Under the pieces are notes generated by a model, which was not told where the DNA came from, did not search any database, and saw only the letters and a list, made by a program, of their open reading frames with translations. From a virus, in IMG/VR virus record IMGVR_UViG_3300025687_000029, positions 31,667-95,666 of that record: a stretch of DNA of 64,000 bases; one strand, written 5' to 3'. Of the stretch, positions 5,544-48,154 are shown piece by piece. Both the position numbers and the translations under genes were made by a program. How positions within the stretch are numbered: the stretch's first letter is position 1; every line of letters starts with the position of its first letter.

Positions 5544-5629
5544 GGTCCAGAAGTTCATATGGTAGAATGTTGCCGGGTATACGTTAAATAATTATGGCAG
5601 AGGTATAGGTTCAAATCCTATCTGGACTA
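5544..5629 (+). tRNA. tRNA-like gene with a 21-nt expanded anticodon loop, no encoded CCA
   Basis: Acceptor GGTCCAG/CTGGACT, D-arm GTTC-ATATGGTA-GAAT, anticodon stem TTGCC/GGCAG, T-arm ATAGG-TTCAAAT-CCTAT. Confidence 0.75.
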
Positions 5630-5724: not shown

Positions 5725-5769
5725 AATAGAAATTTAGCGAACTGTGATGAAACATTTTAGCAAACTGAT

Positions 5770-5830
5770 TGCTAACGATGGGTACATGAAGCGTATGAGG
5801 CACGAATATGATTTATGTACCGTATTAGGT
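5770..5830 (+). repeat. attC-like site 1 (~61 bp)
   Basis: TGCTAAC - GGTACATGAAGCGTAT - GAGGCACGA - ATATGATTTATGTACC - GT - ATTAGGT. Confidence 0.7.
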
Positions 5831-5910
5831 GTCTGTATTTATTTTTTTAAGGGAGGGTTGTTTTATTGGAATGTTATTTGTTTGTTTGTTACAAATTAAA
5901 ATATATAGCA

Positions 5911-6114
5911 ATGGGAAGAAAAATAGGTTCAATAGAAGCATTTGCGCTTCAAAACTTAAAACAAGGACAGTTTTTTTATACGCATAAACAAGACAAAGAT
6001 ATGACTGCAATTGCAGGATATTATAAAGTTAAAATAACAACCGAGAGAATGGTTGCTATTGATACTACAAGGCACGAAAGAATAGAATTTATAACTAAAG
6101 TAACAATACTATGA
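5911..6114 (+). CDS. hypothetical protein (cassette A, gene 1)
   Basis: ATG 5911 (MGRKIGS...) in frame with track ORF 5866. Confidence 0.7.
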   Translation: MGRKIGSIEAFALQNLKQGQFFYTHKQDKDMTAIAGYYKVKITTERMVAIDTTRHERIEFITKVTIL

Positions 6115-6296
6115 AAGATTTTAATTTTAACATCAGACTATTTTGTATATGGAGATGTTTTATGGCTTGTCAGTTTGAATTTACGATACTAAGCATAACA
6201 ATTGGTGAAACCGAAAGGAGTTTATTGTCTTATTTTAAAGACGATAGTAACAAAATACTCGACGTCTGTTTTTTTAGAGTGCGGTGGCAAAAATAA
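6111..6296 (+). CDS. hypothetical protein (cassette A, gene 2)
   Basis: ATGA overlap; stop codon lies in the cassette-end inverted repeat. Confidence 0.6.
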   Translation: MKDFNFNIRLFCIWRCFMACQFEFTILSITIGETERSLLSYFKDDSNKILDVCFFRVRWQK

Positions 6297-6302
6297 ATAT
6301 TG

Positions 6303-6434
6303 CACCTAACGTTTATAAATAATATTAGTAGCGTATGAAAAGAGATAAATATACAATAACCGACTATCTTCGATATGGTAGAAACCTTGCAAATTTGCTG
6401 TGGTGGAAGCTATTAATTTTATTTGGTATTAGGC
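6303..6434 (+). repeat. attC-like site 2 (~130 bp)
   Basis: CACCTAAC; arms AAATAATATTAGTAGC 6317-6332 / GCTATTAATTTTATTT 6409-6424; core ATTAGGC 6428-6434. Confidence 0.7.
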
Positions 6435-6646
6435 GTAGTGCTTCACCAATACCAGAAGGAGTGTACTGTTACGAACCTGATTATGTAGACACAAAAACAT
6501 TTACATATTACGTAAAGCCATGTAAATACTACAAAAACTTAGGGTACGGATGGAATGGATGTAGTTATTTAGGTGTGATTACGGATGATTTTGTATTTAA
6601 TGACCAATGCAAACTATGTAATGAGAATTATTGCAATATACACTAA
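6335..6646 (+). CDS. Cys-rich hypothetical protein starting inside attC-like site 2
   Basis: 103 aa; IPEGVYCY...CKYY...C...DQCKLC putative metal-binding C-terminal module. Confidence 0.75.
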   Translation: MKRDKYTITDYLRYGRNLANLLWWKLLILFGIRRSASPIPEGVYCYEPDYVDTKTFTYYVKPCKYYKNLGYGWNGCSYLGVITDDFVFNDQCKLCNENYCNIH

Positions 6647-6655
6647 CGGAATTAC

Positions 6656-6856
6656 GCCTAACGGTTGGGGTATGGCATGTAATTTTACGAATTTGAAACA
6701 CAAAATTATAATACGATGGAAAAAATAAAAGAAATAGTTGCAGATTTAATGGAATGTTATGATGGAACAGGAACACCAAACCAACATTACATAAAGAACA
6801 AAGTTACCGAGTTGCACAACATAGTTAAAAATATTAATTATGACACTGTGTTAGCA
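6656..6856 (+). repeat. attC-like site 3 (~200 bp, imperfect arms)
   Basis: GCCTAAC 6656-6662 ... GTTAGCA 6850-6856; inner arms pair only partly. Confidence 0.5.
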
Positions 6857-6943
6857 CCTGTTATTTGTGATTGGTGCGAAAAAGACATTACAAACAAAAG
6901 TAAAATTTGTGCAGATTGTGCAGATAGAATGAATGAGCATTAA
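6716..6943 (+). CDS. small protein with C-terminal CxxC..CxxC zinc ribbon, starting inside attC-like site 3
   Basis: CDWC...CADC follows the YDTV|LAPV junction. Confidence 0.75.
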   Translation: MEKIKEIVADLMECYDGTGTPNQHYIKNKVTELHNIVKNINYDTVLAPVICDWCEKDITNKSKICADCADRMNEH

Positions 6944-6995
6944 TGGTTGCTAACTATTATATATTAATAATATCAATAAAATAAATACTTATACT

Positions 6996-31123: not shown

Positions 31124-34100
31124 AAAACTTCTCATAATAATCAAAAAAATCTAATATTTCAGACCAAAAAGGTACTTTCTTCATAGTATAGTGACCAAAA
31201 CCGGTCTGATCATTTTTTTTAGTATCCTCATTATACCAAAACCTCTCCTCTCCAAAAGCAGTATCTATAGTTTCATCAAGGGTATTTCCAAGTATATTAC
31301 TAGCATCTTCCAGTAGTCTATAAATTACTAGAGGATTCTGTAATAACTGATCAGCAGAGCCTTTATCATAGAAAAAGGTTAGCTCTAAAGCTGATCTCTT
31401 AACTAATCTATAAGCATATAAAGTAAATAAATTAGTTTCTTCATCATCATCCCATCCTGCAAAGAATCCTAACATTGCAGCAGCAGTAGATAGTATCATT
31501 ATAGTTCTAGCTTCTTGAATAGTAGCTCTAAGCTTTCCTTCCAGCATTGGAATATACCACTCTTTAAATTCATCAAATGTAAATTCTGTTTCAGGATTCT
31601 TTAACATAAATCTTTGATAAGACTTTTCAAGATTTTGCTGATTAATTTCTTTTGAATACATACCAAAAGATAATAACTCACCAGATACTTTACCTAACTC
31701 TTTAAGAGTTGGAATAAATCCATTACCAATTATATCACCCCAAGCTGCTCTAATTCTACCTTCATTATAAGACTCTAAGGTGTTATCATATTTTAGTTTA
31801 CCAAATCTTGACATTGCAGAGCCTGGAATCCACTGTTTGAATTTCATTAATATTCTATAAATTAGAGCAGTGTCCATAATAGAAGTATTTTCTCTATTAG
31901 TAGATCCTTTTATTAAATATGCAATACGTTGTACTTTTGCTCTAAAACTATCAAATTCTTCATTTAGATTTTCAATATTCTTAATCTCTAACTTATCATC
32001 TTTTATAGAAATGCTGTCATAAAGGCTTGGAGCATCTTTATTAATAAGTTTATCAGTCTTTGGATTCTTAATTTTACCATCTGAATCAACTTTATAATGC
32101 CTTACCATTGATAATAATATCTGATTATCAACAGAATTATCACCCCATTCATGTAACTTTAAAGCATTCCTCATGGTAATTGTAGAAACTAATTTAGAAG
32201 CTGACTGCTCTATAGCTTGCTCATAATTAAAGTTTCTTGAAGTAGGCTTAAACAATTCAACTATAGAAACTCCTTTCTTATCTTTGTTAGTGAGTTCTTT
32301 CCTTGAATCTTTAAATCCCATATTAGTAAAAAATATACCTTCTTTACCTACCAATCTTGTATTTATTTTACCATTGACAATGTTGGAACCTGCTAATATT
32401 GGGTCCCAAGTCATAGAAGATAATGTCATATAACTAGACAATATATCATATAATTTATGAATACTATAGGTTATACCTTTATATTTTATTTTACCCTTCT
32501 CGTCTTGTATTTTTTGACCATATATATCCCTTTTAACGTGTTTCTCAAATAAACTGATTAAATCTGTAGGAACTCCAAAGATCTTAGCTACATTCTTCTT
32601 TAAATGGTTTTTAAGTGGAGTATCTCCATCAGATAGAGTAGTTTTAATATTATCATTCTCTCTTAAAGTATAATATGCTATCTGTACTTGATCTTCAATA
32701 GCATTTAACTCTTCAGCTTGATATACTTGTTGAGCAAATATCATTAGATTGGTAGCTAAATCAATACTTTTTAACTCAGCTCCTTTTCTAAACTCTTCTT
32801 GCTTAACTCTTCTATTATATTCATCATCAAAAACTTTAGTATCTTCTTCAAAACCTTCATTAATAAGTTCTTGTTTTATATGAGATAATTCCTTATTGGT
32901 AAGATTATCGTGTAGAGGTGATACTCCATATACAGGTATTCTGTTAATAGGTTTACCATCAGGACCTAATTCACCATAATCTAAATCTGTTGTTTGAGCT
33001 GATAGATTTTGTCTTAAAATCCTACCAATATCTTTAATTCCCATTACTCCATGCTGACCTATTCTATCTACTACATCTTGTCTAAAATTTGAAGTAAAAT
33101 TCCTATTCTTAATTTTATCATAACCTACAGATTCTCTAGCTTTACTTGTAAAGTTTTTATGAAAATCATAAAATGCTTTCAATTCAGGAGTCTTATTGAT
33201 CTCTAAGAATTTAGAAGATTTATAAGTATTCAGTTTTCTGTTAGGACTTATAAATTTATAATCTGCATTTTTATAAGCATTAGGATACTTCTCAACATTG
33301 TATTGTTTTTCCCACTTGGTAAGATCCTCTTTTATAAGAACCTCTCTTCTTTTATTATATTCTTCCTTAGATTCTTCAGGAACATAATCAGCTTTAATGC
33401 CTATAATAGGATCTCTTAAATCCTTCTCATACCTATCTTTAGCTTGTTGATATTTATCTTTTTCAAATATTGTATATTTCTTAAACCATCCGGTATCTTT
33501 CTTTTTTTTAGCATCCTCAAATGCTTCATAATAAGAAGAATCCATTTCAGAGACAATATTCAAATTATCATCCAGAATCCTTTTATATAAAGACATAACA
33601 GAAACACCTTCTCTTTTAGCTAATTGCCTAAGTCCTTCAGTTAATTCATTAATATTTTTATTGAAAATGTCCATCTTTCTAAGAACATTACCTTCAGTTC
33701 TTCTAAGCATCCTATTATACCATTGAAATACAGGATTATCAATATCTGCAATACCATTAAATAACCTATTAAATGTAGAAGGTAATTTACCCATTTCTAG
33801 TTCATCTACACCAACTCTATTAATAGCTCGTTCAAATATTTTATTTTGAATATCTTGTTTTAAAACATCAACTCTTCCTGAGAACTGTCTGAGTTTAGTT
33901 GTAAAGTCTTCTTTTTGAGTTTTAGAGAAAGTATTTAATTCTTTCTCCAGTTGATTTGTTTTTAAAAATACTTCCAAGAAACTAACATAATTAAGTAATT
34001 CATTATCTTCAAGATAACCTTCCTCACCTAACTTCTTATTTAATCTATTTTCAATATCTTTAGTAATGTAATGAATTTGATTCATAAATCCTATAACATC

Positions 34101-37100
34101 TTTTTTTACTAATAATGTCTGTATAGATTTATCAATCTCCTTCATCTTAGCTTCTCTAGCTGAATAAGAAAGTTTTGTATCACTCTTAACTCCTTCTTTT
34201 AATCTAAATAGATCAGTAACAAACTTATCTAATTTTGTCATAGAAGTAGTTTCACTTTCCAAAGGAATTTGTACTAGGTATTTTTCAGGAGTACTATTTA
34301 CAGCTATTTCTAATCCTTGATAACCAACATCTGTCTTGTATCCATAATTAATATTAATAGGTACTATTCTAGCTTGTCTAAACACCGTATTACCAACTTC
34401 TGAATCCAGTATTGACTTATATCCTCCAACAATTCTAAAAGTCTCTAATTCCCTATGTTTTTGGCTTAATTCTTTAACTGATTTATTAATCCTGTCTTTA
34501 CCAAATTTCTTAGCAGAATACTCAAATACTCCAACAGATCCATCACTATATACTGCCATTATATCTGTACTGCCTACAGTATCTATTGAAGAATTATATA
34601 ATTGTTGTCCAGAGAATATTTCTACAGCACCATCAGGATTTAGATTCTTTTGAGTTTCTTTAATCTCTTTAATAATTAATCTAATACCATCTGCTAAATC
34701 TTTAGCTAAAGTAGGATCTAAAGCTACCAATTCCTCAACTGTAATATTTTTCTCTAAAGCTACTTCTCTAAATTGAGGACTTCTTTTAGCAAGTTCTATA
34801 ACATTAGCCTGTATATCTTTATAACTTGTTTTCTTATCATTAATAATGAAATTAGCTATTTGATTACTCCAAAGATGAATACCTGCCTGTTTAACAACTG
34901 TATAAGTAGTTCTATTTTTAGAATAACCATCTTTTCTAGCCTCTGATTCAACTTCTTCAGAGACTATATTTCTAATCTCATTATTTGTAAGTTTATTAAT
35001 CCAACCTTTATCTGTATAATTTATATTAGTTCTCCAGGATTTTAACTTATTAACAATATCCTGTTGAGTAGGTACTCTTGAAGCTCTTTCAGATTGTCTT
35101 TTTTGAAAAGGTAAATCATCATCTGCTTCAAACATTTGTGCTATAGTATTACCTTGAGAGAATTTAACTTGTCTAACTTCACTTCTAATTAAGCTTCTAG
35201 GAAACTTACGATAACCTTCTTTTAAAGCCGCTATCCTAGTATTAATTTCTGCTTGAGTAGTGTATTCTTTAGGTTTAATAAAAATACCTTCTCCAATTTG
35301 TTCATATCCAGCATCTTCTAACTCATTTAGTTCTTCAAAAGATTTTGCAGTATAAACTTGACCCCTGACTTTTTTCTGAACATCCTTAATACTCTCCTTT
35401 AAATTCTCTTTAGTTTGAGTTGGTTGTTTACCTATATTGTCTTTTAATAGTTTATAATATCCGTCAGGAGATTTAGTATATGTATCTCCATTGTGTTTCT
35501 TAACAACTGTAGACTCATCTTCATAAACTACAGTACCCTTTATGGAATTATATTCTTCTTTTGTAATTTTTTGCTGCCCTTCATTTATTTTTTTAATTTT
35601 AATTTCAGGCTCAACTAACTTCCCATATTTCTGATCTAATATGCTATTAATGTTATCAAGTATTTTCTTAGTAGAATAAGGTACTCCTTCATCATATTCT
35701 AAACGAAAATTACTACCAGTAAGTTCAATACCTAATTCATTATGATGATGTGCTAAATTATCAATTATATCAGCTAAATTAGGTTGTACTGAATTGATAT
35801 TATTTAATGATGGACTCTTAGTATAACTAACTCCAATAATCTCAGACTTCTTATCTTTATTAACTTTTTCAGAAGCATCCCATACACTGCCAGAATATAC
35901 ATCATCATTAGCAGCCCATTTAATATCTTCTGATTTAGGGAATATTTTAAACTTAATTTTACCTCCTCCACCTTCTAAATGGCCTATTTTTCTATCAACA
36001 GGCTTAGTAAATGCAGATATAGTAAACTCACCACCAGATTTTTTATTATCTTCAATATGTGCTAGTAGGTTTTGAAACATTAACTCTACATCAAAATCAC
36101 TATAAGCTCCAACTACAGAATAAAATCCTTGACCTCTACTATATACTTCTTCTGGGTCATATTTAATATCATTAACTTTCTTCCACTCTTCTATAATTTC
36201 TTTAGATTGCTCATATTCTTTATTTTTTTCTATAAACTCATTTAATGGGTTTGAAGAAATTTCTCCAGTAACTTCTAAATTCTTAACTTTATATTCAAAT
36301 TGTAAATGTGTTGGGATTTGAGTATGTAAATAAGAAAAAGCCTCTGCATATGTTTTAAAACTTTTGATAATATTATTATGCTTTGTATTATATACAACAA
36401 AAGGGTATTCGTTAATATCTTTTTTAATGTTTATACTTGTTTTACCTAAATCAACCTCTCCTAACTTAGTCAACTCACTAATATGATTACTAGCTTCTTG
36501 ATAAGTTTTAAAAGTTTGATTATCAGGTGTAGTATAAATTACTTCATTTCCAGGTAATATAAGTTTACTATTAGAATAAGCTAATAAATCAGCTATATCA
36601 CCTAAAGTCATATTATCAGGTAATTTATCTATCTCAACTTCTTTAGCTTTAAATAAAGACTTCATATAAGCCTTCATTTCTTTTAAAAGTCTTTTGAGTA
36701 ATGATATTAATTTACCATCCTTAACTTTATCTAATCTATCAGCAGTATATAAACCTAATAATTCTACAATAGTTTCTTCCTGTTGTTCTTCTAAGGTATA
36801 TGGAATTTGCTCATTTCCATAAACTGATTTTGAAATATAATGATAACCAGCCTCCCCTGCTTCAGAAACTAAAGTATCGGCTTCTTCTTTAGTTAAATTA
36901 CTTTTAAATAAAGTATTATATTCATTATCATATACTTCATAAAAATCTATATTTTTACTAGACTTAACAGTTTTATACTGATAATCCTTCTTAACCCTAT
37001 CTAAGACTTCTTTACCTTTACCATATTCAAGTTCTTTGAGTAGGTTTTGGTATAATTGTTTATTTTGAGCAGTACCAGTTTTTAAAGCCCTAATAATAGG

Positions 37101-37820
37101 ATGCCCTAATATTTCATGGATTGGCGTGTCTAAAGTAGCATATGCTAAATTAATTACAGCAGTATCGCCTTCTAATTTACCTTTATAATCCTTGGTTCTA
37201 TCAGATTCATATTTAACTTTTAAGCCTATTCTATCAGCCATTCTAGCAGCTAAATCTCTAATAGTTTTTTCAGAAGCTATATACTCTTCATCAGATTGAT
37301 TAGTATTATTTTGATAAAAAACTTGATTAATGAGATTATCTCTTTTTTGTTCTCTCATCTCTCTAAGCTTAGCTTCTCTTCTATCTCTATCAGTTATAGG
37401 TGGAGCTAGAGGTTCTTGCAATATAACCTCATCTGGAAACATATTACCTACCCAAGCTGGAGGATTTTTACCAAATTCTCTTCTAATAGCATCTCTCAAT
37501 TCTTGATTTTTCCTATTAACAGGAAGATAGTTAGGTACTAATCTAAACTTATAAGTTAAAGATTCTCCTACCTGTTCAGGTACTACAAAATGAGAAGTTT
37601 TATTTCTTTTATTATAATTTCTAATTAATCTAAAAACATTTAATTTATTAGATTCAGATGCTTTATAAGGAACCCCCATAGCAGCTTTTAAAGCACTATT
37701 ACTCATTTGTGTAGGAGGAAAGTTATCTTTATAAGCAACCCAGGTTTTCTTAGCTAAATCTAAACCTACTTGTTTTACTAATTTATCCCAATTAGGATTA
37801 TTTGTTTTTGGACATCCCAT
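31122..37820 (-). CDS. giant virion ejection protein (crAss-like) with zincin-like and PD-(D/E)xK-like domains
   Basis: 2232 aa; N-terminal CP..N...W..L, PIHEILGH, GSTDIMAV..DGS; directly downstream of the vRNAP gene. Confidence 0.8.
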   Translation of the reverse strand: MGCPKTNNPNWDKLVKQVGLDLAKKTWVAYKDNFPPTQMSNSALKAAMGVPYKASESNKLNVFRLIRNYNKRNKTSHFVVPEQVGESLTYKFRLVPNYLPVNRKNQELRDAIRREFGKNPPAWVGNMFPDEVILQEPLAPPITDRDRREAKLREMREQKRDNLINQVFYQNNTNQSDEEYIASEKTIRDLAARMADRIGLKVKYESDRTKDYKGKLEGDTAVINLAYATLDTPIHEILGHPIIRALKTGTAQNKQLYQNLLKELEYGKGKEVLDRVKKDYQYKTVKSSKNIDFYEVYDNEYNTLFKSNLTKEEADTLVSEAGEAGYHYISKSVYGNEQIPYTLEEQQEETIVELLGLYTADRLDKVKDGKLISLLKRLLKEMKAYMKSLFKAKEVEIDKLPDNMTLGDIADLLAYSNSKLILPGNEVIYTTPDNQTFKTYQEASNHISELTKLGEVDLGKTSINIKKDINEYPFVVYNTKHNNIIKSFKTYAEAFSYLHTQIPTHLQFEYKVKNLEVTGEISSNPLNEFIEKNKEYEQSKEIIEEWKKVNDIKYDPEEVYSRGQGFYSVVGAYSDFDVELMFQNLLAHIEDNKKSGGEFTISAFTKPVDRKIGHLEGGGGKIKFKIFPKSEDIKWAANDDVYSGSVWDASEKVNKDKKSEIIGVSYTKSPSLNNINSVQPNLADIIDNLAHHHNELGIELTGSNFRLEYDEGVPYSTKKILDNINSILDQKYGKLVEPEIKIKKINEGQQKITKEEYNSIKGTVVYEDESTVVKKHNGDTYTKSPDGYYKLLKDNIGKQPTQTKENLKESIKDVQKKVRGQVYTAKSFEELNELEDAGYEQIGEGIFIKPKEYTTQAEINTRIAALKEGYRKFPRSLIRSEVRQVKFSQGNTIAQMFEADDDLPFQKRQSERASRVPTQQDIVNKLKSWRTNINYTDKGWINKLTNNEIRNIVSEEVESEARKDGYSKNRTTYTVVKQAGIHLWSNQIANFIINDKKTSYKDIQANVIELAKRSPQFREVALEKNITVEELVALDPTLAKDLADGIRLIIKEIKETQKNLNPDGAVEIFSGQQLYNSSIDTVGSTDIMAVYSDGSVGVFEYSAKKFGKDRINKSVKELSQKHRELETFRIVGGYKSILDSEVGNTVFRQARIVPININYGYKTDVGYQGLEIAVNSTPEKYLVQIPLESETTSMTKLDKFVTDLFRLKEGVKSDTKLSYSAREAKMKEIDKSIQTLLVKKDVIGFMNQIHYITKDIENRLNKKLGEEGYLEDNELLNYVSFLEVFLKTNQLEKELNTFSKTQKEDFTTKLRQFSGRVDVLKQDIQNKIFERAINRVGVDELEMGKLPSTFNRLFNGIADIDNPVFQWYNRMLRRTEGNVLRKMDIFNKNINELTEGLRQLAKREGVSVMSLYKRILDDNLNIVSEMDSSYYEAFEDAKKKKDTGWFKKYTIFEKDKYQQAKDRYEKDLRDPIIGIKADYVPEESKEEYNKRREVLIKEDLTKWEKQYNVEKYPNAYKNADYKFISPNRKLNTYKSSKFLEINKTPELKAFYDFHKNFTSKARESVGYDKIKNRNFTSNFRQDVVDRIGQHGVMGIKDIGRILRQNLSAQTTDLDYGELGPDGKPINRIPVYGVSPLHDNLTNKELSHIKQELINEGFEEDTKVFDDEYNRRVKQEEFRKGAELKSIDLATNLMIFAQQVYQAEELNAIEDQVQIAYYTLRENDNIKTTLSDGDTPLKNHLKKNVAKIFGVPTDLISLFEKHVKRDIYGQKIQDEKGKIKYKGITYSIHKLYDILSSYMTLSSMTWDPILAGSNIVNGKINTRLVGKEGIFFTNMGFKDSRKELTNKDKKGVSIVELFKPTSRNFNYEQAIEQSASKLVSTITMRNALKLHEWGDNSVDNQILLSMVRHYKVDSDGKIKNPKTDKLINKDAPSLYDSISIKDDKLEIKNIENLNEEFDSFRAKVQRIAYLIKGSTNRENTSIMDTALIYRILMKFKQWIPGSAMSRFGKLKYDNTLESYNEGRIRAAWGDIIGNGFIPTLKELGKVSGELLSFGMYSKEINQQNLEKSYQRFMLKNPETEFTFDEFKEWYIPMLEGKLRATIQEARTIMILSTAAAMLGFFAGWDDDEETNLFTLYAYRLVKRSALELTFFYDKGSADQLLQNPLVIYRLLEDASNILGNTLDETIDTAFGEERFWYNEDTKKNDQTGFGHYTMKKVPFWSEILDFFDYYEKF

Positions 37821-40800
37821 TATAAATCTAATTCTGTTAAATTACAATTATCTAAATTTTCATCTACTTCTTCATCAGAAGGTATATCTGTTACAGTAGG
37901 TTCATCTTCTGTAAATTTAATTTCATTTTCTTGTTGAGTTTTAATTCCTCTTAATTCTTGTACAGCCTCATCTTCTATTAATTCTCTATAAACCCTATTC
38001 AATTTAATTTCAATAGGATCATTTACTCTATTTGAATTAGTTATTTCTTCTCCTCTATAATCAACAACAGATTTAAATTCAAAGAATTTCTTAATACCTT
38101 TTGGTTGGAAATTAGTACCTGGCATAGTACCAAATCCCCAATCTTCATTTGGTTCAACAAACCAATCATTTAATTTAGCACTCCACTTCTTAAAGAAAGG
38201 TAATGAATCAACAGCAAAATTCTTAGGAACTATTGAATGATCTCTATAGTTATTACTATAAAAGTCATTAATAAAACTATCCAGAGGTAAATTTTTAATA
38301 TTTTCTATAGCATTCGTCATTCTTTCTAAGAAGAGTTCTCCAGGTACAAAGCTAAGAAAATTCATTGGACTTTCCAATTTACCTGATTGGAGAATTATAA
38401 AGTCTAGCAGATCTTCTCCTAGAGGATTTGCCTGAGTATCTGAATCAAGTAGTTCATTCCATCCTGTTACAAGGGATTCTTCAGTAATCTTATCAGTATA
38501 TCTATAAAGCATAGTGATATTACTAATCTCATTTTCCCCTCTAATAACAGGAATTAATACTTTAATTAATGGATTATTTTTATATTTAGCATCAGACTGA
38601 GCTTCTTTTAATCTTCTAGGTACTGATTTATTTCCTGTAAATAACTCTGCATATCTAGATTTCAATGCAGGTTTAATAATATTATCCTGCTCATCTACAA
38701 TATCTTGAGTACCTTCAATTAAACTATAAGTATAATATTCAGTAATGAGTTTATCTAAAGCTTTGATCTTATCATCATATGACATCTTTACAGATGGGTG
38801 ACTATACATAGATATAAATGAATCAAGGGTATCTTTCAGTATTGGATTTCTCAATGCATATATAAAAGGTGTATATGCAGACTCTAATTCTTTGAATATA
38901 TTCTTATAACCTTCCAAGAAGCTACCCTCAGATATTAATTTATCAGCATTTATAAAATCTGTAGATCTCATTACTTTATCAGTAACTACATTCTTATATA
39001 ATAAATCTGAAGTATTCTTAGGAGGTTTAGTATCATAAGAAGTAGCAGTAACAAGTTCTTTAACTTTGTCAGCAGCTAATTCATATCTTAGATAATCTTG
39101 AAGTATTAATGTTTGTAACCTCTTTTGAGTATTATTTAATTTAGATGTAGAGATCATATCTTCTAATTGATCATTAGTAAATAAATCTCTATCATTAATC
39201 TGAGCATTTTCTAATTCAAAATCAGTAGGTCCTCCGTATTTCTCAATTAATCGCTGAACAACTTCCTTCTTATATCTAATATCTCCTGCTTGTCTGGTAG
39301 TATCATATGATAAAGAACCTAGATTTTCCAATTGAGACTGCATATCTCTAATTATAGGCTGATTCATAAATAATCCTACAGTTTTTAGAGGTATTCCTGC
39401 TCTTAATAGATATATAAATAAATTGGCTGTTTTTGGACCTGCATTAATAGTAAATACATAAGGATCTTTAGCAGCATCTACATAAGAAGATATTAATTCA
39501 TTAAATAGATTTTGTATATTTTCATTTGCTTTATTAGTATTTTTACTTAGTGGAATAGATCCATCTTCAGTACTGTTACTTTCTAAGAATAGTTTAGTAC
39601 TTATTGGTAAAAACTTTCTACCTACTTTAGCAGTAATAACGCTTTCTATTCCTAGACCTGCATGTACAAAGTTTATATGAGAAGTAGATGCATTGGCTGC
39701 AATACCTACTCCAGATTTAGCACCTAATAATTCAGCAGCTTTATCTAAAGAATTGACTAATCCAAATGCTTGTGTCCAAGTAACTTCTTTAATCCTCTTA
39801 TAGTCCTTTAATTCTCCTGGTTTACCTTCTTGTAACCAAGAAATATAATCAGCCAATCCTTCCATATTATCAGCAGCAATAGGACTAATTAATCTTTCAA
39901 AGTTTTGAGGAGAAGTAACTATCTTATGTTTAAGTTCTACAAGCTTATTTTCTACCTTTTGCAGTTCAAACTTAGACCTATTCATAGGATTTTTAACTCT
40001 ATCCTTATAAGTCTCATAATCACCTTCTAGATATACAGGGTTATTATCAAAATCATAATAAACATTAGGAGTATAAATATTTAATTTATCAATATCAAAG
40101 TCACTACCAGCTTTAGCTACAATCTCTGAAGGAAGTATTATAATATCTCCGGCTTCTTCTGGTAAAAAATCTTTAATTATTAAAGATTCAATTGAATTTA
40201 ATCCTTGTGTGGGAATCCTAAAACCCAGTATTTCTAATAATCTTGGATCTGTTATTTCACCAATTTCAATACCTTTCTTCTTAAAATAAGAAGGTATGTA
40301 CACTTCAGCTTGCTCAACAAACTTTAATTCTCTGCCTTTAGAATCTCTTCTTGTGTAGAATTTCAAATCAGCAGCTTGGAATTTCTTATCTCCAACTTCT
40401 ATCTTATCTACAGCATTTTTATAACCTTCCATCATAGACACAGATACTTGTATTTTCATACCTCCTGTTCTCTTTTGTCTTATAGAAGATTTATCAGCAA
40501 TTGAGTATAATATAGATTCTAACTGAGTTCTATTGGATAAAACATCAATACCAATATTGTTAATTTTATCAACCATATTGATTCTATCTTCAATAGTACC
40601 TCTAGATAGTAATTCGTCTTTAATCAGCTCTTTAAAGGCAGTAAAATTATCTTTAGATTCATACTTACCATCAACAAGCTTTAACCCTAGCCTATCAAGT
40701 AAATTATCAAAACCTAACTGTATTCTTTGATTATTAAGGCTTATATATTCATTATAGATCTCTTCAGTAGTAGCTTTAGTATCTCTAAAGGTCATTTCTT

Positions 40801-43800
40801 TAAAGTTACCATTATCATCTCTAAGAGCATCTATAATATGCTTCATTTCTTGAGTACCTGTAGTAACTGTATCTTTAACCTTCTGTTCTATATTAACTTG
40901 AATACCCCATTCTCCAGTATAAGTATTTTGAGTTAATGCTCCTTCTAAATCAGCAATACTAAAATCTTCATTAAATATATTCTGAGGATTTCCCCCTAAT
41001 TCAGTTACTTTAGCTCCAATTTTATTAGCAGATTCAAATACAGCAATACCTATTTGCTTAGAGGTCATATACTGCATAAGCTTCTCCATTTCAGTATCTT
41101 GAGCTACAGATGGAATAATGGGAGCTAGAGATAATTTATAGAATGCAGGAATAAATTCACTTTCTTTTAAAGGAGCAAAATATTGAAACTTTTGAGGATT
41201 AAATACTCCTTCAGGCTTTGATTCTAATAATTTAACTCTTTGTTCAGGAGAAGCTTCTTGATATTTAATTTCCCATTGATATAAAGGCTCTTGAATATCC
41301 ATATCCCACTTACCCATTCTAAATAATAGATCTCTATATTCATCAAGTGAGATATATCCCTGACCATCACCTTCATTCATGTGATAAATCTTATTACCTT
41401 TTTTATCTATATGATACCCATAGTATCTATCAGCAACATCCTCACCTAAGACTTTTCTATATTCTTCTAAGTATCTTGAAGGTACTTTCTTATCTCCAAA
41501 AGTCATAGTAGTAATACTAGGAACATCTATATCATTAATTTTACCATCAAGTCTTTTAAAGTTAGTATTAATCCAGTTATTTAGATTTCTACTTGTGTTA
41601 GGTAATTCTTTTGTTCCAATAGGGCCGGATAATCTTTTAAAGAAATTATCTGTATTCTTATAATATGCAGGTGATCCAAAGAAGAATTTTGTCTGTTCAA
41701 TATTACCAATGAAATCTCTAGCTGAATACTCTGCCATAAATTCATTGAGTTTATCTTCTGACATCTTCTTGCCTAGATAATTATAATAATCCTTTTGTTT
41801 TGTTATAGTTCCAATTCTAAGAAACTCATCTATATTCTTTTTCTGTCTAACATCTAAGAATAATTCCATAAGTTTCCTTAAAGACAACTCATTACCACTA
41901 CTAATAAAAGAATCTGTATTAAACTCTTCAATGAAAGATTTAACATCTTCTCTAGTTCCATCCATAGCTTCATTGAATGCTACTATAAGTTCCTCATTAC
42001 CAGAATTCTTAACAATATCTATCATTGGACCTGAATTGAGTTTATCTTCATATTGATAAAACTCAGTTCTATCCTTTAAAGATACCCATTTGATCATTTC
42101 ATCCTCTAAATAACCAACCAACTGATCAAGAATTGTTCCTTTATCATTAGTAAATACTCCAGGCATACTTATAACTCTGAATAGTTTATTGTCAGAAGCT
42201 CTTAACATAGGATATTTATCCTTCATTGTAGATTCAATGTACATAACCCCTTTATCAGAAGGAGCTAAACTTTCAAATAAATCTCCTTGATTATCTCCAA
42301 ATGTAGAGAAATCTTCATATATCTCTACAGCTACATCAGTATTTACATTAGATCTCTTATTTCCATCCTCGTCAAATATAGCTCCACCATTTCTTAATAA
42401 CTCTGAATTATTTAAAGACTTATCTGCAAAATGAGGATATAATTTAAGCAACTCATCTTTGGTTGAAACAGCATTTAAAACACTGGATGTTTTAGACATA
42501 TTACTATGTAGAGAGATATTATATAACTTATCACCCTCTCTGTTTCTATGGGAATTTTCTACAATATTAATAGAAGTTAATGCTTCTAATCTCTCATAGA
42601 ATTTTCTCGCTTCATCATTTATAGATAAATTATCATTAAATAGATTCTTAGTCTTACCTTCTTTTATATTTTTATATACAGAATTAGTAAGAGTTTTAAA
42701 TCTACTAGCATTCATTTCATCAGGTAATGATCTAAACTGTTTAGGAGTACCTGTAAAATTAGTAAATTCAATACCTAAGTTCTTTAAAAATATAATTTTA
42801 TCTTCAATAGTATCTCCAGGTTGCTCTAAAGAATCTACAAATTTATCAGAATATACAGCTCCTTCATCAGATACTTTCATCTTAGAAGTTCCATTTATAT
42901 TAGAACTCCAAGTGGTTTGAGCAGTCTTCATTCTACTTTGAAGAGTAGGATCTAAATGAACTGCTTGATTTCTATCAGAATCTATTTTTACTCCGGTATA
43001 TTTTATATTTTGTTTATTAAATGTATTATAAAATTTATTTAATATAATTCTATCATCAACATTTAAGTTATCTTCTCCTACTTTAAAATAGTTAATAACA
43101 GGCCCAACTTCAGGATTAACTTGTTTAAGTTCAATCATCCTAACTAACATATCTTCTTCAGAAACTGCATCTGCTAATTTGTTGAATAACATGTTAGATA
43201 TAGTATTATAATCAATAGCTCTAGGTGTACCAAAACTTGTATAAGCATTGGCAATCTGCCCATTACCTAATTTTTCAGCAGCAGGAATAGCAGACAATAT
43301 AGTCTTCACTTCTGTAGTAGCTGTATCTTTAGCTGATACTTTGATAGATACTTCAGCCCAATGATTACCCGCTGAATCTCTACCTTTATCAGGATCTTCA
43401 TTAAACATTTCTTCTAAATCAATAGTAATACCCATCTGACGCAAATGTTCAGTATGAATATCAACTATAGAGTCTTTAGAGCTACTATTATTCAATGATT
43501 TTATAATAGTAGATATATTCTGTATATTATTAATTAATTGTTGTTTTTGAGCTTCTGTAGTAGCTATTTTAAGATCTTCTCCATACTTTCTAATATATCC
43601 TCCTAAAGTTTCTTTAACTCTACCATATACAGTTTGTAATTCAGGACCGGACATCTTTTTAAATTGTTTAAATGTCTTACCCATGTTATCAGGATGGAAT
43701 ATTTCTCTAAAGAATAGATAATTAATACTATTTAAAGCTTCATTTGTAAATGATTGAGAAGTTCCCGGTATTACTCTATATAGTTCTTGGGTACTTGTAT

Positions 43801-46800
43801 TTACTGGATTTCTATACTTAAAATATCCATTATCAATAGCTTTAAATAAGTCTAAAGGAGTTTCGGTACTAAATTTCCTAAACTTGTTAATAAATGCTTT
43901 TATTGCTTTAAATACTCTACCAATAAAACCTTTTGGTTGTTTTAGAGAATTTACATATTTTCTATATTCTTCAGCAAGTTTTTCTTCAACTTTCGCATCA
44001 GATAAATCAGAATCATTCTCTTCTCTCCAAGTATCATATAACTGTTTTCTTTGTGTATCAGTTAGATACAATTTACTGACAATATGAAATGCTTCATGAT
44101 ATACAGTATCAGTAGATGCTATATCTGATAATTCTACTCCTGCCTTAGTAAATTTACCCCAGGCTTTATTATCTATAAGACCTTTAACTACTTTTAATTC
44201 AGTATCTCCAAATCTAGAGTTTAAATATCTTTGTGCAGCCTCTACATCTAACTTGGATACTTTATTTTCTTCAGGAGCTAATCTATAATCAAGCTCTGTT
44301 AATTTAGTATCATCAGCTTCAAAATCATTAGCAAGTTTAGCATCAGTACTAAACTCATTTATAAGATCTTGTATATCATCAGTATTAGTAACAATATCAT
44401 CTTTGGTTGGCTGATCTTCTTGAGGAATTGTTTCAGCTTCTTCTATAGGAGCTAATGATTCTCTGTGAGTTCTATCATAGATTAAATATTGATTCTTAAA
44501 TCTAGGTTCTGATATTTCTAAGGTTTTATCTCCAACTTCAGTTGTTATTGTTTTATTAGTTAAAGATGTTACAAGAACATTATCATATAAATACTTCTTA
44601 TACCCTCCATCTCTAACTTTAAATGTTTTTATTTTAGGTTTACCATTTTTATCAAAAGATTCAATTAATTTAAAGTCTTTACCTCCATATCTTTCCAGTA
44701 TTTTATTAGAAACTTGATGGTATGAAGTTCTTAAATAATCATTTAAAGCATCTTCTAATTCAGGATTTAATCTTAGTTCTCCTTCAAGTGAAGCAGGATC
44801 AATTATATCTATAGGAGATTCAGTATTCTTATTTAGAATAATAGCTCCTCCAGTATTATTATTAACTCTATAGAAATTGCTAATAGCATCATCTCCAGTA
44901 AAATAAACAATACTTTTCAAGTAATCATAAATATTCTGTCCTTGTATTTCTACAGTTTTTACTTTTACTTGAGGAGTTTTATATCTCTTATCTACAGATT
45001 GTTGAGATACCCAATATTTAAAAGTATCTATGATATTCTGTCTTTCATTATCATTAAGAACTCTACTATTAACAAAATGAATATTACCTGTAGTTTCATT
45101 AAATATATAAGGAAATCCCGGTTTACCTTGAATAGTTTCTCCGTTAGGTAATTCTATTTTATTATTTGTTGCTACATATAACTGAGAATTACCAGGCTTT
45201 GCTATCTCAGTAACAGGTCTGGTTTCTAATAATCCTGACTCATTGAATGAATATACTTGAATACCTCTACTCTTATTAGTAATTTGAGATACAAAAGATT
45301 CTCCTTTTTGTAGTTTTTCAATAAGAGCAGTTTTATCTTTATAATACTGTTTTGTTTGCTCCTGAAATAACTCATCAGCTTCTTGTTCAGTAATACCTTC
45401 AGGAGTATAATAAGTCTTACCAAACTCATTACTTTCTTTAGGATTAGTCATATAAGTAACTATGCCTTTTTCTCCTACTTCACTAAATTCTATAGCATTA
45501 CCATTAACATCAACAGGTGTAAATTCGCCTTTGGAATATGTACCAATAGTTAAGAATACATCTCCTTCAGAACTAGCTTCAGGTAATTCTATTCCTGGAA
45601 CTGATAATGAATATCTAACATGATATTTAGTAACATCTTGTTTATCAGTAAATTCTGCTAATCTTAAAGCTTCAGGATTATTTGTTAATACATCTCTACC
45701 TTCTTCAGTAAAATGAGATCTGACAGAAGTACCATTAGCTGTATTGGCAATACTTCGCTTAACAGTTTTAAAATCCTCATCCTCAAATTTATTCTCTATA
45801 GTTTCTACATCATTTGTAGATTTTTCTTTAGTTATATCTTCTTTAGTTTCAGCTTCAACTTTTTTAGCCTTCTTAACTTCTTGTTCTGCAAAAACTTTTT
45901 CTAAAGGATCAACAATCTTAGATTCATCATATATAACTCCTTGTTCTGGGCTAATTGGAGTATACTGATTTAATTCTTCAGGGGAATTAAGCTTAATTTT
46001 TTTATTTGGATTCTTAATATCCTTTAAAACAGTATTACCTATTTTATCTTTAGTAGTAATATAAAAGTTTCCAGAATCATCTTTTAAATATTGACCTTCT
46101 GGAATACTATCCATTTTAGCCTTACTTTTAATATTTTCACCCTCTTTATCTACTTTATCATCAATACTGTTCTTTTGATTGAATTGTTTTCTAAGATAAT
46201 CATTATCATTAAGTTTGGATTGTCTCTCTCTACTTTTAACAATATCTTTTCTATAAGTATCTAAAGTATCAGCTTTTTTATTAAGATCTGTTTTTTCAGA
46301 ATCAGTAAGACTCTCATTATTACTAATAGAATCTTTAGTAGCTTTAATATCTACCTTACCTTCTTCATTATATTTTAAATCAGATCCTATATCATTCCTT
46401 AATTCTTCAGATTTATTAATTAGAAACTTTTGATTTAAAGATTCTGTAATTCTATTATTTAGAACAAGATTAGAAAAATTACCAATCTTTTGTATATCAT
46501 CAGTTTCTTTAACTTGAAAATTACCAAAGTTTGCTACATGATCTTTATTTGCAGTTTCTACAATTTTCTTATACTCAGGTATTTTATTTAATAGATCTTG
46601 TTCAACATTATCAAAGTATTCTTGAGGAATACCTGCATTAGTACCTTCTTCTTTTTGTTTTGCTGCATATTCTCTAATATAAGTTTCTATCTGCTCTTGA
46701 CTATATCCTTCTTTAATAGCAGGATATATAACATTAAAGTCTTTTATATTCTTTACATAATCAAAAGCTTCTCTATTGTTATTCATAGCAGCAGCATCAA

Positions 46801-48154
46801 GTATCTGAGTATCATGTAGATTATTCAGTTCTTGATTAATATATTCAGTAGCTTTTGAGACACTGATTGTAGGATTTCCTTGAGTATCTTCTCCAAGAAT
46901 ATCAGTAATAGATTGATAGTTATTAACTACATTATTCTTTACTAATGCAACATCTTTATTAGTTTTAATATCACTTTTAATTGATGATCTAGCTTGCATA
47001 CCACTACCTAAGATAGCTCCTAATGCTACAGATGTTTGAAAATCAACATCATCCATGCTATTAAGATATGTATCTACAATACCTTGAAAATCTGATGCAT
47101 ATTCTTTGGTTTTACCTAAAGCCTTATCTTCATAGTATTTACCAATAGAAAACTGAGAGCCTTCTTCCCAAAATCCTTCTTTAGCTACACCAGTGGGAAT
47201 TTGCATAGCAGCTCTACCTCCTATTTCCTTTAATCCTCTAGTTTTATGAGCAGACTTCATTAAATCAAATCCTCCAAATAAAGTAACTCTATCCATAAGA
47301 TTTGATACAGCAAGTACTCCTAGATTAGCTTTAAATACTCCAGCAGCAGCATCTCCTGCTTTTTGTTTATCACCTGTTTTAGCAAGAATATTATTATATA
47401 TTTCCCTGCCTTCAGATATAGCTTCTATATAAGTATTTGCAGCCGTAGCTATAGCATCATCTGTATACACTCCTGCTTTAGTTGGTAGATTAGCGTATTT
47501 GGCTAATCTAGCGCCCGGCTGTAGTCCTGCAAAACCTTTTATCTTACTAGTTACCTGTACTCCCCTTGCTAATTGACCTGCCTTTCCAATACCTTTAAGT
47601 AATGCTCCAGGAACAAACATTGCAGCTATAAATCCAATACCATCAGCTCCTTCATTAGCCCAAAATTCACCTGATGTTAATTTATCAGTTAAAGTTCCAT
47701 TAGCTACAGATTCTTTAACATATACAGGCATTACTTCTTGCTTCATATATTGTTCAGCCTGATCAATATTTTCTAACCAAGCATTATTTAAAGCAGAATC
47801 TATTTTCTCTTTATCAAAACCTGTAGTGGCCCAATCACCTAATCCAACTAAATATCCGGGTAATTTAACTACTTCAGCTACAGCTTTAGTTGCTGCTCTT
47901 AAAGGAACAGCTCCAACTTCAAATATAGGACCTTGTCTTTCAGCCCTTCTTTGAGTTAGTTTCTCAGGAGTATCAATCTCTCTAGGATAATACCCTGGAT
48001 CATCAAACATTGATTCTCCAAAGTCATCTGTATATATAGATCCAAATACATCTACAGGAGCTGTCTCATCTATACTACCATATGAAGTAACAGGCTGTAC
48101 CTTACCTGATGAAACAGCTTGTTCCATATCTTCTTTCAATCTTTCCTTACTCAT
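37820..48154 (-). CDS. virion-packaged DNA-dependent RNA polymerase (phi14:2 gp66-like) with zincin domain
   Basis: 3444 aa; GSDFDIDKL catalytic loop (~40082-40108), FRIPTQ, YVDAAKDP, HEAFH (44084-44098). Confidence 0.92.
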   Translation of the reverse strand: MSKERLKEDMEQAVSSGKVQPVTSYGSIDETAPVDVFGSIYTDDFGESMFDDPGYYPREIDTPEKLTQRRAERQGPIFEVGAVPLRAATKAVAEVVKLPGYLVGLGDWATTGFDKEKIDSALNNAWLENIDQAEQYMKQEVMPVYVKESVANGTLTDKLTSGEFWANEGADGIGFIAAMFVPGALLKGIGKAGQLARGVQVTSKIKGFAGLQPGARLAKYANLPTKAGVYTDDAIATAANTYIEAISEGREIYNNILAKTGDKQKAGDAAAGVFKANLGVLAVSNLMDRVTLFGGFDLMKSAHKTRGLKEIGGRAAMQIPTGVAKEGFWEEGSQFSIGKYYEDKALGKTKEYASDFQGIVDTYLNSMDDVDFQTSVALGAILGSGMQARSSIKSDIKTNKDVALVKNNVVNNYQSITDILGEDTQGNPTISVSKATEYINQELNNLHDTQILDAAAMNNNREAFDYVKNIKDFNVIYPAIKEGYSQEQIETYIREYAAKQKEEGTNAGIPQEYFDNVEQDLLNKIPEYKKIVETANKDHVANFGNFQVKETDDIQKIGNFSNLVLNNRITESLNQKFLINKSEELRNDIGSDLKYNEEGKVDIKATKDSISNNESLTDSEKTDLNKKADTLDTYRKDIVKSRERQSKLNDNDYLRKQFNQKNSIDDKVDKEGENIKSKAKMDSIPEGQYLKDDSGNFYITTKDKIGNTVLKDIKNPNKKIKLNSPEELNQYTPISPEQGVIYDESKIVDPLEKVFAEQEVKKAKKVEAETKEDITKEKSTNDVETIENKFEDEDFKTVKRSIANTANGTSVRSHFTEEGRDVLTNNPEALRLAEFTDKQDVTKYHVRYSLSVPGIELPEASSEGDVFLTIGTYSKGEFTPVDVNGNAIEFSEVGEKGIVTYMTNPKESNEFGKTYYTPEGITEQEADELFQEQTKQYYKDKTALIEKLQKGESFVSQITNKSRGIQVYSFNESGLLETRPVTEIAKPGNSQLYVATNNKIELPNGETIQGKPGFPYIFNETTGNIHFVNSRVLNDNERQNIIDTFKYWVSQQSVDKRYKTPQVKVKTVEIQGQNIYDYLKSIVYFTGDDAISNFYRVNNNTGGAIILNKNTESPIDIIDPASLEGELRLNPELEDALNDYLRTSYHQVSNKILERYGGKDFKLIESFDKNGKPKIKTFKVRDGGYKKYLYDNVLVTSLTNKTITTEVGDKTLEISEPRFKNQYLIYDRTHRESLAPIEEAETIPQEDQPTKDDIVTNTDDIQDLINEFSTDAKLANDFEADDTKLTELDYRLAPEENKVSKLDVEAAQRYLNSRFGDTELKVVKGLIDNKAWGKFTKAGVELSDIASTDTVYHEAFHIVSKLYLTDTQRKQLYDTWREENDSDLSDAKVEEKLAEEYRKYVNSLKQPKGFIGRVFKAIKAFINKFRKFSTETPLDLFKAIDNGYFKYRNPVNTSTQELYRVIPGTSQSFTNEALNSINYLFFREIFHPDNMGKTFKQFKKMSGPELQTVYGRVKETLGGYIRKYGEDLKIATTEAQKQQLINNIQNISTIIKSLNNSSSKDSIVDIHTEHLRQMGITIDLEEMFNEDPDKGRDSAGNHWAEVSIKVSAKDTATTEVKTILSAIPAAEKLGNGQIANAYTSFGTPRAIDYNTISNMLFNKLADAVSEEDMLVRMIELKQVNPEVGPVINYFKVGEDNLNVDDRIILNKFYNTFNKQNIKYTGVKIDSDRNQAVHLDPTLQSRMKTAQTTWSSNINGTSKMKVSDEGAVYSDKFVDSLEQPGDTIEDKIIFLKNLGIEFTNFTGTPKQFRSLPDEMNASRFKTLTNSVYKNIKEGKTKNLFNDNLSINDEARKFYERLEALTSINIVENSHRNREGDKLYNISLHSNMSKTSSVLNAVSTKDELLKLYPHFADKSLNNSELLRNGGAIFDEDGNKRSNVNTDVAVEIYEDFSTFGDNQGDLFESLAPSDKGVMYIESTMKDKYPMLRASDNKLFRVISMPGVFTNDKGTILDQLVGYLEDEMIKWVSLKDRTEFYQYEDKLNSGPMIDIVKNSGNEELIVAFNEAMDGTREDVKSFIEEFNTDSFISSGNELSLRKLMELFLDVRQKKNIDEFLRIGTITKQKDYYNYLGKKMSEDKLNEFMAEYSARDFIGNIEQTKFFFGSPAYYKNTDNFFKRLSGPIGTKELPNTSRNLNNWINTNFKRLDGKINDIDVPSITTMTFGDKKVPSRYLEEYRKVLGEDVADRYYGYHIDKKGNKIYHMNEGDGQGYISLDEYRDLLFRMGKWDMDIQEPLYQWEIKYQEASPEQRVKLLESKPEGVFNPQKFQYFAPLKESEFIPAFYKLSLAPIIPSVAQDTEMEKLMQYMTSKQIGIAVFESANKIGAKVTELGGNPQNIFNEDFSIADLEGALTQNTYTGEWGIQVNIEQKVKDTVTTGTQEMKHIIDALRDDNGNFKEMTFRDTKATTEEIYNEYISLNNQRIQLGFDNLLDRLGLKLVDGKYESKDNFTAFKELIKDELLSRGTIEDRINMVDKINNIGIDVLSNRTQLESILYSIADKSSIRQKRTGGMKIQVSVSMMEGYKNAVDKIEVGDKKFQAADLKFYTRRDSKGRELKFVEQAEVYIPSYFKKKGIEIGEITDPRLLEILGFRIPTQGLNSIESLIIKDFLPEEAGDIIILPSEIVAKAGSDFDIDKLNIYTPNVYYDFDNNPVYLEGDYETYKDRVKNPMNRSKFELQKVENKLVELKHKIVTSPQNFERLISPIAADNMEGLADYISWLQEGKPGELKDYKRIKEVTWTQAFGLVNSLDKAAELLGAKSGVGIAANASTSHINFVHAGLGIESVITAKVGRKFLPISTKLFLESNSTEDGSIPLSKNTNKANENIQNLFNELISSYVDAAKDPYVFTINAGPKTANLFIYLLRAGIPLKTVGLFMNQPIIRDMQSQLENLGSLSYDTTRQAGDIRYKKEVVQRLIEKYGGPTDFELENAQINDRDLFTNDQLEDMISTSKLNNTQKRLQTLILQDYLRYELAADKVKELVTATSYDTKPPKNTSDLLYKNVVTDKVMRSTDFINADKLISEGSFLEGYKNIFKELESAYTPFIYALRNPILKDTLDSFISMYSHPSVKMSYDDKIKALDKLITEYYTYSLIEGTQDIVDEQDNIIKPALKSRYAELFTGNKSVPRRLKEAQSDAKYKNNPLIKVLIPVIRGENEISNITMLYRYTDKITEESLVTGWNELLDSDTQANPLGEDLLDFIILQSGKLESPMNFLSFVPGELFLERMTNAIENIKNLPLDSFINDFYSNNYRDHSIVPKNFAVDSLPFFKKWSAKLNDWFVEPNEDWGFGTMPGTNFQPKGIKKFFEFKSVVDYRGEEITNSNRVNDPIEIKLNRVYRELIEDEAVQELRGIKTQQENEIKFTEDEPTVTDIPSDEEVDENLDNCNLTELDL

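Follow-up and report, generated by a model that had tools for sequence, protein, structure and literature searches.

A putative integron-like cassette array in a crAss-like phage, with start codons inside its hairpin sites

Two small open reading frames in a phage genome begin inside sequences that look like integron recombination sites, and the question raised by this locus is what such sites would move: whole genes, or parts of genes. The window analysed here is a 64,000-nt stretch, bases 31667-95666 of a 95.7-kb IMG/VR record that is about 94% complete and has 29% G+C. As the preliminary description had it, the ORFs at 6335-6646 and 6716-6943 start between RYYYAAC and GTTRRRY boxes and read through the latter, each in a different frame. 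It went on to place the crossover at the internal G/TTRRRY box, so that a hairpin and the N-terminal half of the next gene would belong to the upstream cassette, and saw in this a dedicated domain-shuffling system.

Some context for the locus comes from the rest of the genome. A 3444-aa ORF (window 37823-48154, minus strand) resembles, over residues 2081-2714, the gp66 virion RNA polymerase of Cellulophaga phage phi14:2 (6VR4, E 3.7e-30), and because phi14:2 is crAss-like we regard the present phage as crAss-like too. The adjoining 2232-aa ORF (window 31125-37820, minus strand) has no match among PDB sequences or PHROGs. The box region is surrounded by small rightward genes, with a tRNA-like element upstream and replication genes downstream. 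The tRNA-like element (5544-5629, plus strand), about 140 nt upstream of the first hairpin site, matches the Rfam tRNA model at 46.6 bits (E 2.5e-8); despite this match, ARAGORN found no tRNA anywhere in the window. The motif [CG]CTAAC occurs four times in the roughly 1.2 kb of 5771-6954, as against 19 times in all 64 kb. A blastn search of the box region against isolated phages gave no match, Rfam holds no family for the hairpins of the window or of six related loci, and profile searches of the 95.7-kb genome for tyrosine recombinases (PF00589) and resolvases (PF00239) gave no match either. The features of the region are as follows.

5766-5776, plus strand: terminal-type box opening site 1, TGATTGCTAA/C, with a putative crossover at 5775/5776; the box is of the type seen in 29 partnered units of relatives
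5780-5821, plus strand: site 1 hairpin, with arms 5780-5787 and 5815-5821 and a 27-nt loop in which no ORF starts
5822-5834, plus strand: internal box of unit alpha, G-TATTAGGTG, whose ATTAGGTG is complementary to CACCTAA at 6303-6309
5911-6296, plus strand: two ORFs of 67 aa (5911-6114) and 61 aa (6111-6296), the cargo of unit alpha
6299-6310, plus strand: box that is terminal in unit alpha and forms the 5' box of site 2, ATTGCACCTAA/C, putative crossover 6309/6310, PWM score 15.3
6318-6423, plus strand: site 2 hairpin arms, A at 6318-6332 and A' at 6409-6423, with ATG 6335 and the first 24 codons in the loop
6335-6646, plus strand: ORF1, 103 aa, a hydrophobic N-terminal part followed by a Cys-rich body, wholly inside unit beta (6310-6661)
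6428-6441, plus strand: internal box of unit beta, ATTAGGCGTAGTGC, read I-R-R-S-A; its first base is A where the consensus has G
6651-6662, plus strand: box that is terminal in unit beta and forms the 5' box of site 3, ATTACGCCTAAC, that is ATTACGCCTAA/C, putative crossover 6661/6662, PWM score 18.8
6716-6943, plus strand: ORF2, 75 aa, whose head (residues 1-45) is a helical hairpin and whose tail has the pattern CxxC-x13-CxxC
6850-6862, plus strand: internal box of unit gamma, beginning G/TTAGCACC; GTTAGCACC at 6850-6858 is read (V)-L-A-P
6945-6954, plus strand: terminal box of unit gamma, GGTTGCTAA/C = GGTTGCTAAC, 2 nt past the ORF2 stop

The four 5' boxes of the window (GCTAAC, CCTAAC, CCTAAC and GCTAAC) all fit RYYYAAC. 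Of the 3' boxes, GTTAGCA fits GTTRRRY; the other two, ATTAGGC and ATTAGGT, begin with A instead of G. The CCTAAC at 6305-6310 lies 25 nt before the ATG of ORF1; the ATTACGCCTAAC box at 6651-6662 begins 5 nt past the ORF1 stop, and ORF2 begins 54 nt past that box. Each unit's internal box can pair with its own terminal box: in unit beta, 6429-6441 pairs with 6649-6661 at 12 of 13 positions, one G.T included, and in unit gamma GGTTGCTAA at 6945-6953 complements the internal box once a 1-nt bulge is allowed. The pairing in unit alpha, just 7-8 nt long, is for that reason weak when taken singly. The two ORFs of unit alpha belong to no family in Pfam or PHROGs.

Folding of the window by itself is less telling. 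As free hairpins the three sites have z-scores of -1.7, +0.3 and -0.2, no better than shuffled sequence. The plus strand of site 1 folds as DNA at -7.2 kcal/mol (z -1.66) and the minus strand does not fold (z 0.02); the minimum free energy fold of the window includes arms A and A' of site 2, yet its z is +0.3; and the arms of site 3 are largely decayed in comparison with a related site, L007:3882. The sites measure about 68 nt (site 1), 143 nt (site 2) and 200-210 nt (site 3), against an attC range of about 57-141 nt. Our own strict hairpin scan recovered none of the three; the home-made scanner proved too permissive in this AT-rich DNA, with 109 matches against about 73 in shuffles, and was dropped. 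The three putative sites within 1.2 kb, beside which no integrase was found, were called from boxes and relatives. We take the sites as real because of the comparison with relatives, not because of the window alone; the earlier proposal that they are genuine integron-like hairpin sites stands, on the covariation of relatives and not on the window folds.

The ORF1 unit was found in 16 viral contigs, in Cellulophaga phage phi46:3, in Winogradskyella thalassocola and in a Saprospiraceae MAG. Its neighbours are unrelated between genomes, and the blocks of homology end 0-5 nt from boxes. In these relatives the boxes form arrays of a single orientation, with terminal boxes 0-12 nt past stop codons (arrays of L003, L007, L016, L002, L005 and phi46:3) and a second box of the ATTACGCCTAAC type 40-55 nt upstream of the start codon; L007 has about 10 boxes, each directly 3' of a stop codon. 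The units of 18 related phage and bacterial loci combine a terminal box close to the stop with a complementary 13-nt internal box. Among 58 terminal boxes, 29 have an upstream inverted 13-mer partner with at most two mismatches, as against 1.9% in controls. The partner is always G-TTRRRY plus 6 nt and is particular to its unit (AGGCG with CGCCT, AGCGG with CCGCT, ATGCCCC with GGGGCAT, GTAGG with CCTAC), and at ORF1-type units the pair changes in concert (AGG/CCT, ATG/CAT, GTG/CAC), the internal boxes including GTTAGGC, GTTATGC and GTTGTGC. These unit-specific pairs are covariation across many independent units.

A second helix links the leader with codons at about 20-30, and the start codon lies inside its loop. 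In an alignment of 12 ORF1-type sites (A3) this arm helix is 96% paired, with four pairs changed on both sides, where slid controls are 36-61% paired; one of its G.U pairs is invariant in all 12 sequences. Sites of relatives span 57-250 nt with loops of 30-190 nt, fold strongly against shuffles (z -5.7, -4.9, -3.7 and -3.2), and in their minimum free energy folds show R box, bubble, long arm and loop. In both helices the wobbles read G.T on the coding strand, and it is thus this strand, or the mRNA, that folds better. In attC the choice of strand is set by extrahelical bases; a bulged G or T of this kind was not identified in conserved form, and the G.T wobbles, though they favour the coding strand, are not that canonical feature. 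Both helices also place TAGT opposite ATTA (in the window, 6436-6439 with 6651-6654 and 6326-6329 with 6412-6415, for example); the G.T wobble of this motif is never repaired to G-C or A-T, and its AGT is a serine codon in most units, giving peptides of the V-x-x-S type.

What, then, moves as a unit? The preliminary description took ORF1 for a chimera and named homologues that are always collinear across the junction as the finding that would speak against it. Full-length collinearity across LFG(V/I)RRS, where conservation is highest, holds for each of the 19 protein homologues and for about 14 DNA loci, so the claim falls by its own measure. At least 10 loci give blastn blocks whose right ends lie 0-3 nt from the terminal box and whose left starts fall in the leader or 1-5 nt past the upstream box; none of them begins at the internal box. 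Past the terminal box, sequence differs between genomes whose ORF1 units are 91-97% identical. On the other flank, a metagenome contig (X7, 93% identical) tracks the window from 5855 to 6311 and then diverges immediately past CCTAACG, and the block shared with the Saprospiraceae locus L018 begins at 6312, next to the 5' box of site 2. The hairpin, leader and N-terminal half of ORF1 stay with its C-terminal half instead of riding with the upstream cassette, and both neighbours change at RYYYAA/C. Because homology ends at this box past the stop and not at the internal box, ORF1 and its hairpin form one cassette, and the main crossover is better placed at what the preliminary description called the inverse core, with a complete gene inside one unit.

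Codon-position differences in the ORF1 body (0.16/0.10/0.36) follow a coding pattern; in the N-terminal part they are 0.14/0.02/0.12, with the third position constrained, which fits a nucleic-acid structure overlapping the reading frame. In L003 and L008 the leaders have been replaced inside the loop and not at a box. In L018:10001-10483 (the Saprospiraceae MAG) and in protein P0003, the ORF1 body, with neither a stop codon nor a terminal box of its own, runs 55 residues further in frame into what appears to be the tail of another unit; the join is at the internal-box-like GGTGATTTTAACGGTAGT, and the fusion ends in a terminal box of its own, GCATTACCGCTAA. The AlphaFold model of ORF1 is too poor for use (pLDDT 53), and sub-threshold zinc-ribbon matches aside, neither ORF1 nor ORF2 belongs to a family in Pfam or PHROGs. 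Judged by these sequence comparisons, ORF1 is a whole-gene cassette and not a chimera.

ORF2 behaves differently. Its first 45 residues are 83-98% identical in proteins P0021 and P0023, while the tails past T-V-L-A are unrelated by protein comparison, and P0022 and P0024 have the same pattern of common head and unrelated tail. A second head type, 43-52% identical to that of the window and ending I-P-C-C, is joined, in nearly identical copies, to at least five tails that are unrelated to one another (P0029/38/39, P0030, P0036, P0037 and P0041, with P0040 perhaps distant kin of P0030), and a third, ending H-D-V-S, has two tails. There are 4-5 unrelated tails on close heads and 11-12 family-wide, and the switch points are TVLA, PCC/E and DVS. 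The predicted structure of ORF2 (pLDDT 75.8) would be a helical hairpin with a small zinc-ribbon-like tail, the low-confidence linker (residues 41-50) falling at the junction; Foldseek gave no match for it at E <= 0.001, and the DksA-type top rows, at E about 2, were not counted. The zinc-ribbon domain has indeed no start of its own, as had been noted: the CxxC-x13-CxxC tail lies wholly past 6850, and the sole in-frame ATG there is close to the stop.

For the tail, the evidence is a single contig. Contig 12 of X5, from another run, is 163 nt long and of low depth; it matches 6849-6979 at 100%, its first 21 nt being unlike the window, and so would appear to join the same ORF2 tail, from 6849 on, to other DNA upstream. 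Searches of viral and metagenome contigs for related loci of the ORF2 family found none, and tblastn of the variable tails against the related loci returned noise only. Taken together, the protein and contig comparisons support the view that ORF2 head and tail may assort separately at the GTTRRRY box. The expectation that each half would be found joined to different partners at the box is thus borne out for the ORF2 head and fails for ORF1, and for the ORF2 tail it has this one short contig. Within single arrays, L003 has two units that are common from ATG-10 through the internal box and different beyond it, and in L016 two adjacent units have only boxes and arms in common.

A published phage provides a point of comparison. 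Qi et al. (2023, Front Microbiol; PMC9892861) found clusters of attC sites without an integrase in virulent phages; among these is Polaribacter phage P12002L, whose attC2 was recombined with attI1 by IntI1, with the junction verified, while attC1 was not; attC2 recombined when delivered as the bottom strand, and top-strand events occurred at lower frequency. We mapped the published oligonucleotides onto the P12002L genome. There attC1, a hairpin of 57 nt (TGCTAAC...GTTAGGC), separates two methyltransferase genes and lies on the gene strand; its internal box complements the one past the gp35 stop, and the GTTAGGC core of attC2 is the reverse complement of GCCTAA/C directly past that stop, its bottom strand being the gene strand. 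On the gene strand P12002L has the same box grammar as the window family, which would make the window sites part of a family in which one member is active by experiment and has its crossover past the stop codon. Like the window, this lytic Bacteroidota phage has several attC-like hairpins between small co-oriented genes and no integrase. The two accounts differ in that the paper treats the sites as ordinary attC between complete genes, with divergent site directions, and lacks the 13-nt complementarity within units, the placing of genes on the folding strand, and the start codons and N-termini inside the site; the term 'crAss' does not occur in it and no crAss-like phage is listed (PMC9892861). 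In the literature searched we found no description of gene starts encoded by a site, this CALIN report being the sole related match. The box pair GTTAGGCACTTTTA with TAATTGTGCCTAAC is common to L003:3280/3953 (an uncultured phage contig) and P12002L (L029, about 30010/29243), with different cargo; in P12002L the cargo between the two is the methyltransferase gp35.

We consider it probable, if not strongly so, that three integron-like cassettes, in part decayed and with no integrase, make up a short array at 5766-6954, with a fold on the coding strand, whole-gene cassettes and shared heads. Clusters of attC sites lacking an integron integrase are known as CALINs, and this array would be one of them. 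Read on the coding strand, a unit would consist of C, spacer, arm A, loop, arm A', spacer, internal G-TTRRRY plus 6 nt, body, stop, and terminal 6 nt plus RYYYAA; an attC-like site would be put together from one unit's terminal box and the next unit's hairpin and internal box. It would be the coding strand that folds, and the usual crossover would fall at RYYYAA/C just past the stop codon, in which case hairpin, start codon, N-terminal residues and body would travel together as a whole-gene cassette. From the hairpin module, unrelated tails would get their start codon and, in the ORF2 family, a helical domain of 45 aa as well; we regard this module as a shared head on unrelated cargo because it is conserved between cassettes, as attC is within chromosomal integrons. 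With the box grammar, the covariation, the junction positions and the head/tail mosaic as observed, the agent would be a tyrosine recombinase, not encoded by the window phage, acting on the folded strand. Several findings count against the array: the window hairpins fold about as well as shuffled sequence, two internal boxes start with A, site 3 measures about 200 nt, and recombinases are missing not only from the window genome but, in the form of IntI-class integrases, from the two bacterial genomes that carry ORF1 (searches of the Winogradskyella and Saprospiraceae genomes with TIGR02249 gave nothing above the cut-off).

Crossover at the terminal box does not by itself account for the junctions at internal boxes, which are seen in the ORF2 family, the X5 contig and the L018 fusion. 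These rarer junctions may have come from a site folded on the other strand, or from homologous or microhomology recombination within heads. A bolder version of the first of these, which we hold only tentatively and think rather doubtful, is that the same hairpin site recombines on either strand: the coding-strand fold would be cut at RYYYAA/C and move whole genes, and the rarer other-strand fold would be cut at G/TT and swap N-terminal domains in a fixed frame, so that the system would also generate small fusion proteins in Bacteroidota phages.

The hairpins might instead work at the level of mRNA, where they would affect how small early genes are translated or how their transcripts are processed or stabilised. 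The mosaic would then be a product of homologous or microhomology recombination, a route also proposed for T4-type phages and their promoter-stem-loop cassettes, with no site-specific recombinase. We think this unlikely, although a role in RNA alone remains a serious rival to the reading as DNA sites. The invariant G.U (12 of 12 sequences, like the other wobbles G.U on the coding strand) and the strict co-orientation of the elements with genes fit an RNA role equally well; the start codon is always in the loop, the phage has no recombinase, the leaders of L003 and L008 were swapped inside the loop and not at a box, and the L018 fusion resembles a GGTG microhomology event. An RNA role leaves unexplained, however, the RYYYAAC/GTTRRRY consensus with its attC-like layout of box, bubble, arm and loop, and the precision of junctions that fall 0-3 nt from a box with only 5-7 nt conserved. 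Nor does it explain why a member of the family is an IntI1 substrate (PMC9892861), and the hairpins match no Rfam family.

The domain-shuffling model of the preliminary description, with its crossover at the internal box, we find improbable. It does draw on real observations, namely the closely similar heads with unrelated tails of the ORF2 family, the contig that matches the window perfectly over 6849-6979 behind 21 nt of different sequence, and the in-frame fusion of the ORF1 body to another tail in L018 and P0003; its polarity also agrees with the pairing of the two boxes inside one unit. Yet the ORF1 head stays with its body at every locus while sequence past the terminal box varies, the X7 contig breaks at the terminal box, the G.T wobbles favour folding of the coding strand and hence cleavage at RYYYAA/C, and the P12002L site on which IntI1 is active crosses over at the box past the stop codon. 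A shared head on varied cargo, moreover, is equally expected if cassettes share one attC type.

That the window holds inert relics, two ordinary fixed genes keeping decayed boxes in a phage where recombination has ended, is very improbable: the near-zero z of the window sites, the A for G in two internal boxes, the largely decayed site 3 arms, the failure of the strict scan on all three sites and the absent recombinase would suit it, but the P0021-P0023 heads carry other tails, and the breaks of metagenome contigs of other samples, at 6311 and 6849, show that close relatives did exchange DNA at both points. Two further candidates were rejected. A repeated crAss-type early promoter does not agree with the study of phi14:2, in which early transcripts had no common upstream motif, nor with the presence of the element in a siphovirus and in bacterial chromosomes; and at a Xer/dif-like site, for which ATTGCGCATAA resembles a XerC arm, a second arm at the right spacing was not seen.

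Returning to the cassette array, the next comparison is with integrons. An integron attC is an imperfect palindrome, RYYYAAC...GTTRRRY, with unpaired spacer and variable loop, and the sites of one array are highly similar. The first bases of an integron cassette are complementary to its own far box, the stop codon lies beside or inside the box, and whole units are exchanged at the box; the sites are usually described as non-coding hairpins behind complete genes. The window family has in common with classical and sedentary chromosomal integrons the palindrome layout, the self-complementary cassette ends, the stop near the box, a similar site on unrelated cargo and the exchange of whole units. 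It differs in having neither IntI nor attI, loops of 30-190 nt that hold a start codon, and a closing stem of up to 13 nt with a conserved G.T; and because its genes are on the folding strand, the site stands ahead of its gene, unlike in classical integrons.

Two other systems are worth comparing. Promoter-early stem-loops (PeSLs) join a promoter to a stem-loop, and homologous recombination has been proposed for their exchange; Arbiol and colleagues reportedly described them in 2010 as mobile regulatory cassettes of T4-type phages. They too are conserved intergenic stem-loop modules ahead of small accessory genes, in plastic phage regions where genes are shuffled, but they lack RYYYAAC/GTTRRRY boxes and complementarity within units, and do not encode an N-terminus. 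In class 1 integrons, ORF-11 at attI1 is a known case of a borrowed start, and aacA4 cassettes borrow a start codon from upstream sequence. There, as in the window family, start codon and first residues come from site or neighbouring DNA and one cargo can have varied N-termini; those cases, however, are sporadic by-products at attI or in fused cassettes, whereas the window family has a recurrent module with a folded 45-aa domain in a fixed frame. What sets these elements apart is the placing of the site ahead of its gene, on the coding strand, with the start codon inside it; in one family the site also encodes a folded 45-aa domain common to unrelated cargo.

The window copy is a degenerate, recombinase-less example of a largely undescribed integron-like cassette variant. 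For the window itself the consequence is a correction: the main cassette boundary would lie past the stop codon. If the array reading is right, small accessory genes of Bacteroidota phages, crAss-like ones included, travel by a cassette system from one phage to very different ones and also into the chromosomes of hosts, and the same system could reuse one N-terminal module on many tails. It would also offer a tractable model for how integron cassettes arise and are expressed, with phi46:3 and P12002L as cultured relatives.

Two of the related loci have features of their own. At the end of a Winogradskyella thalassocola contig (L019:7000-10411) the ORF1 cassette sits in a bacterial chromosome beside an AAA_15/AAA_21 ATPase with matches to AbiEii-like families, and at least three more terminal boxes are present; the contig stops about 100 nt past the cassette, as is common for assemblies at repeats. 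In phi46:3, the gap between gp030 and gp031 (L020:3487-3560) holds a compact hairpin of opposite polarity, GTTAGC...GCTAAC, which looks like a unit without cargo; its bubble measures 5 nt, its inner stem 7 bp and its loop 27 nt. Relatives of the phi46:3 recombinase were found in none of the related loci; in phi46:3 itself this tyrosine recombinase gene, gp034, lies about 1 kb downstream of the hairpin.
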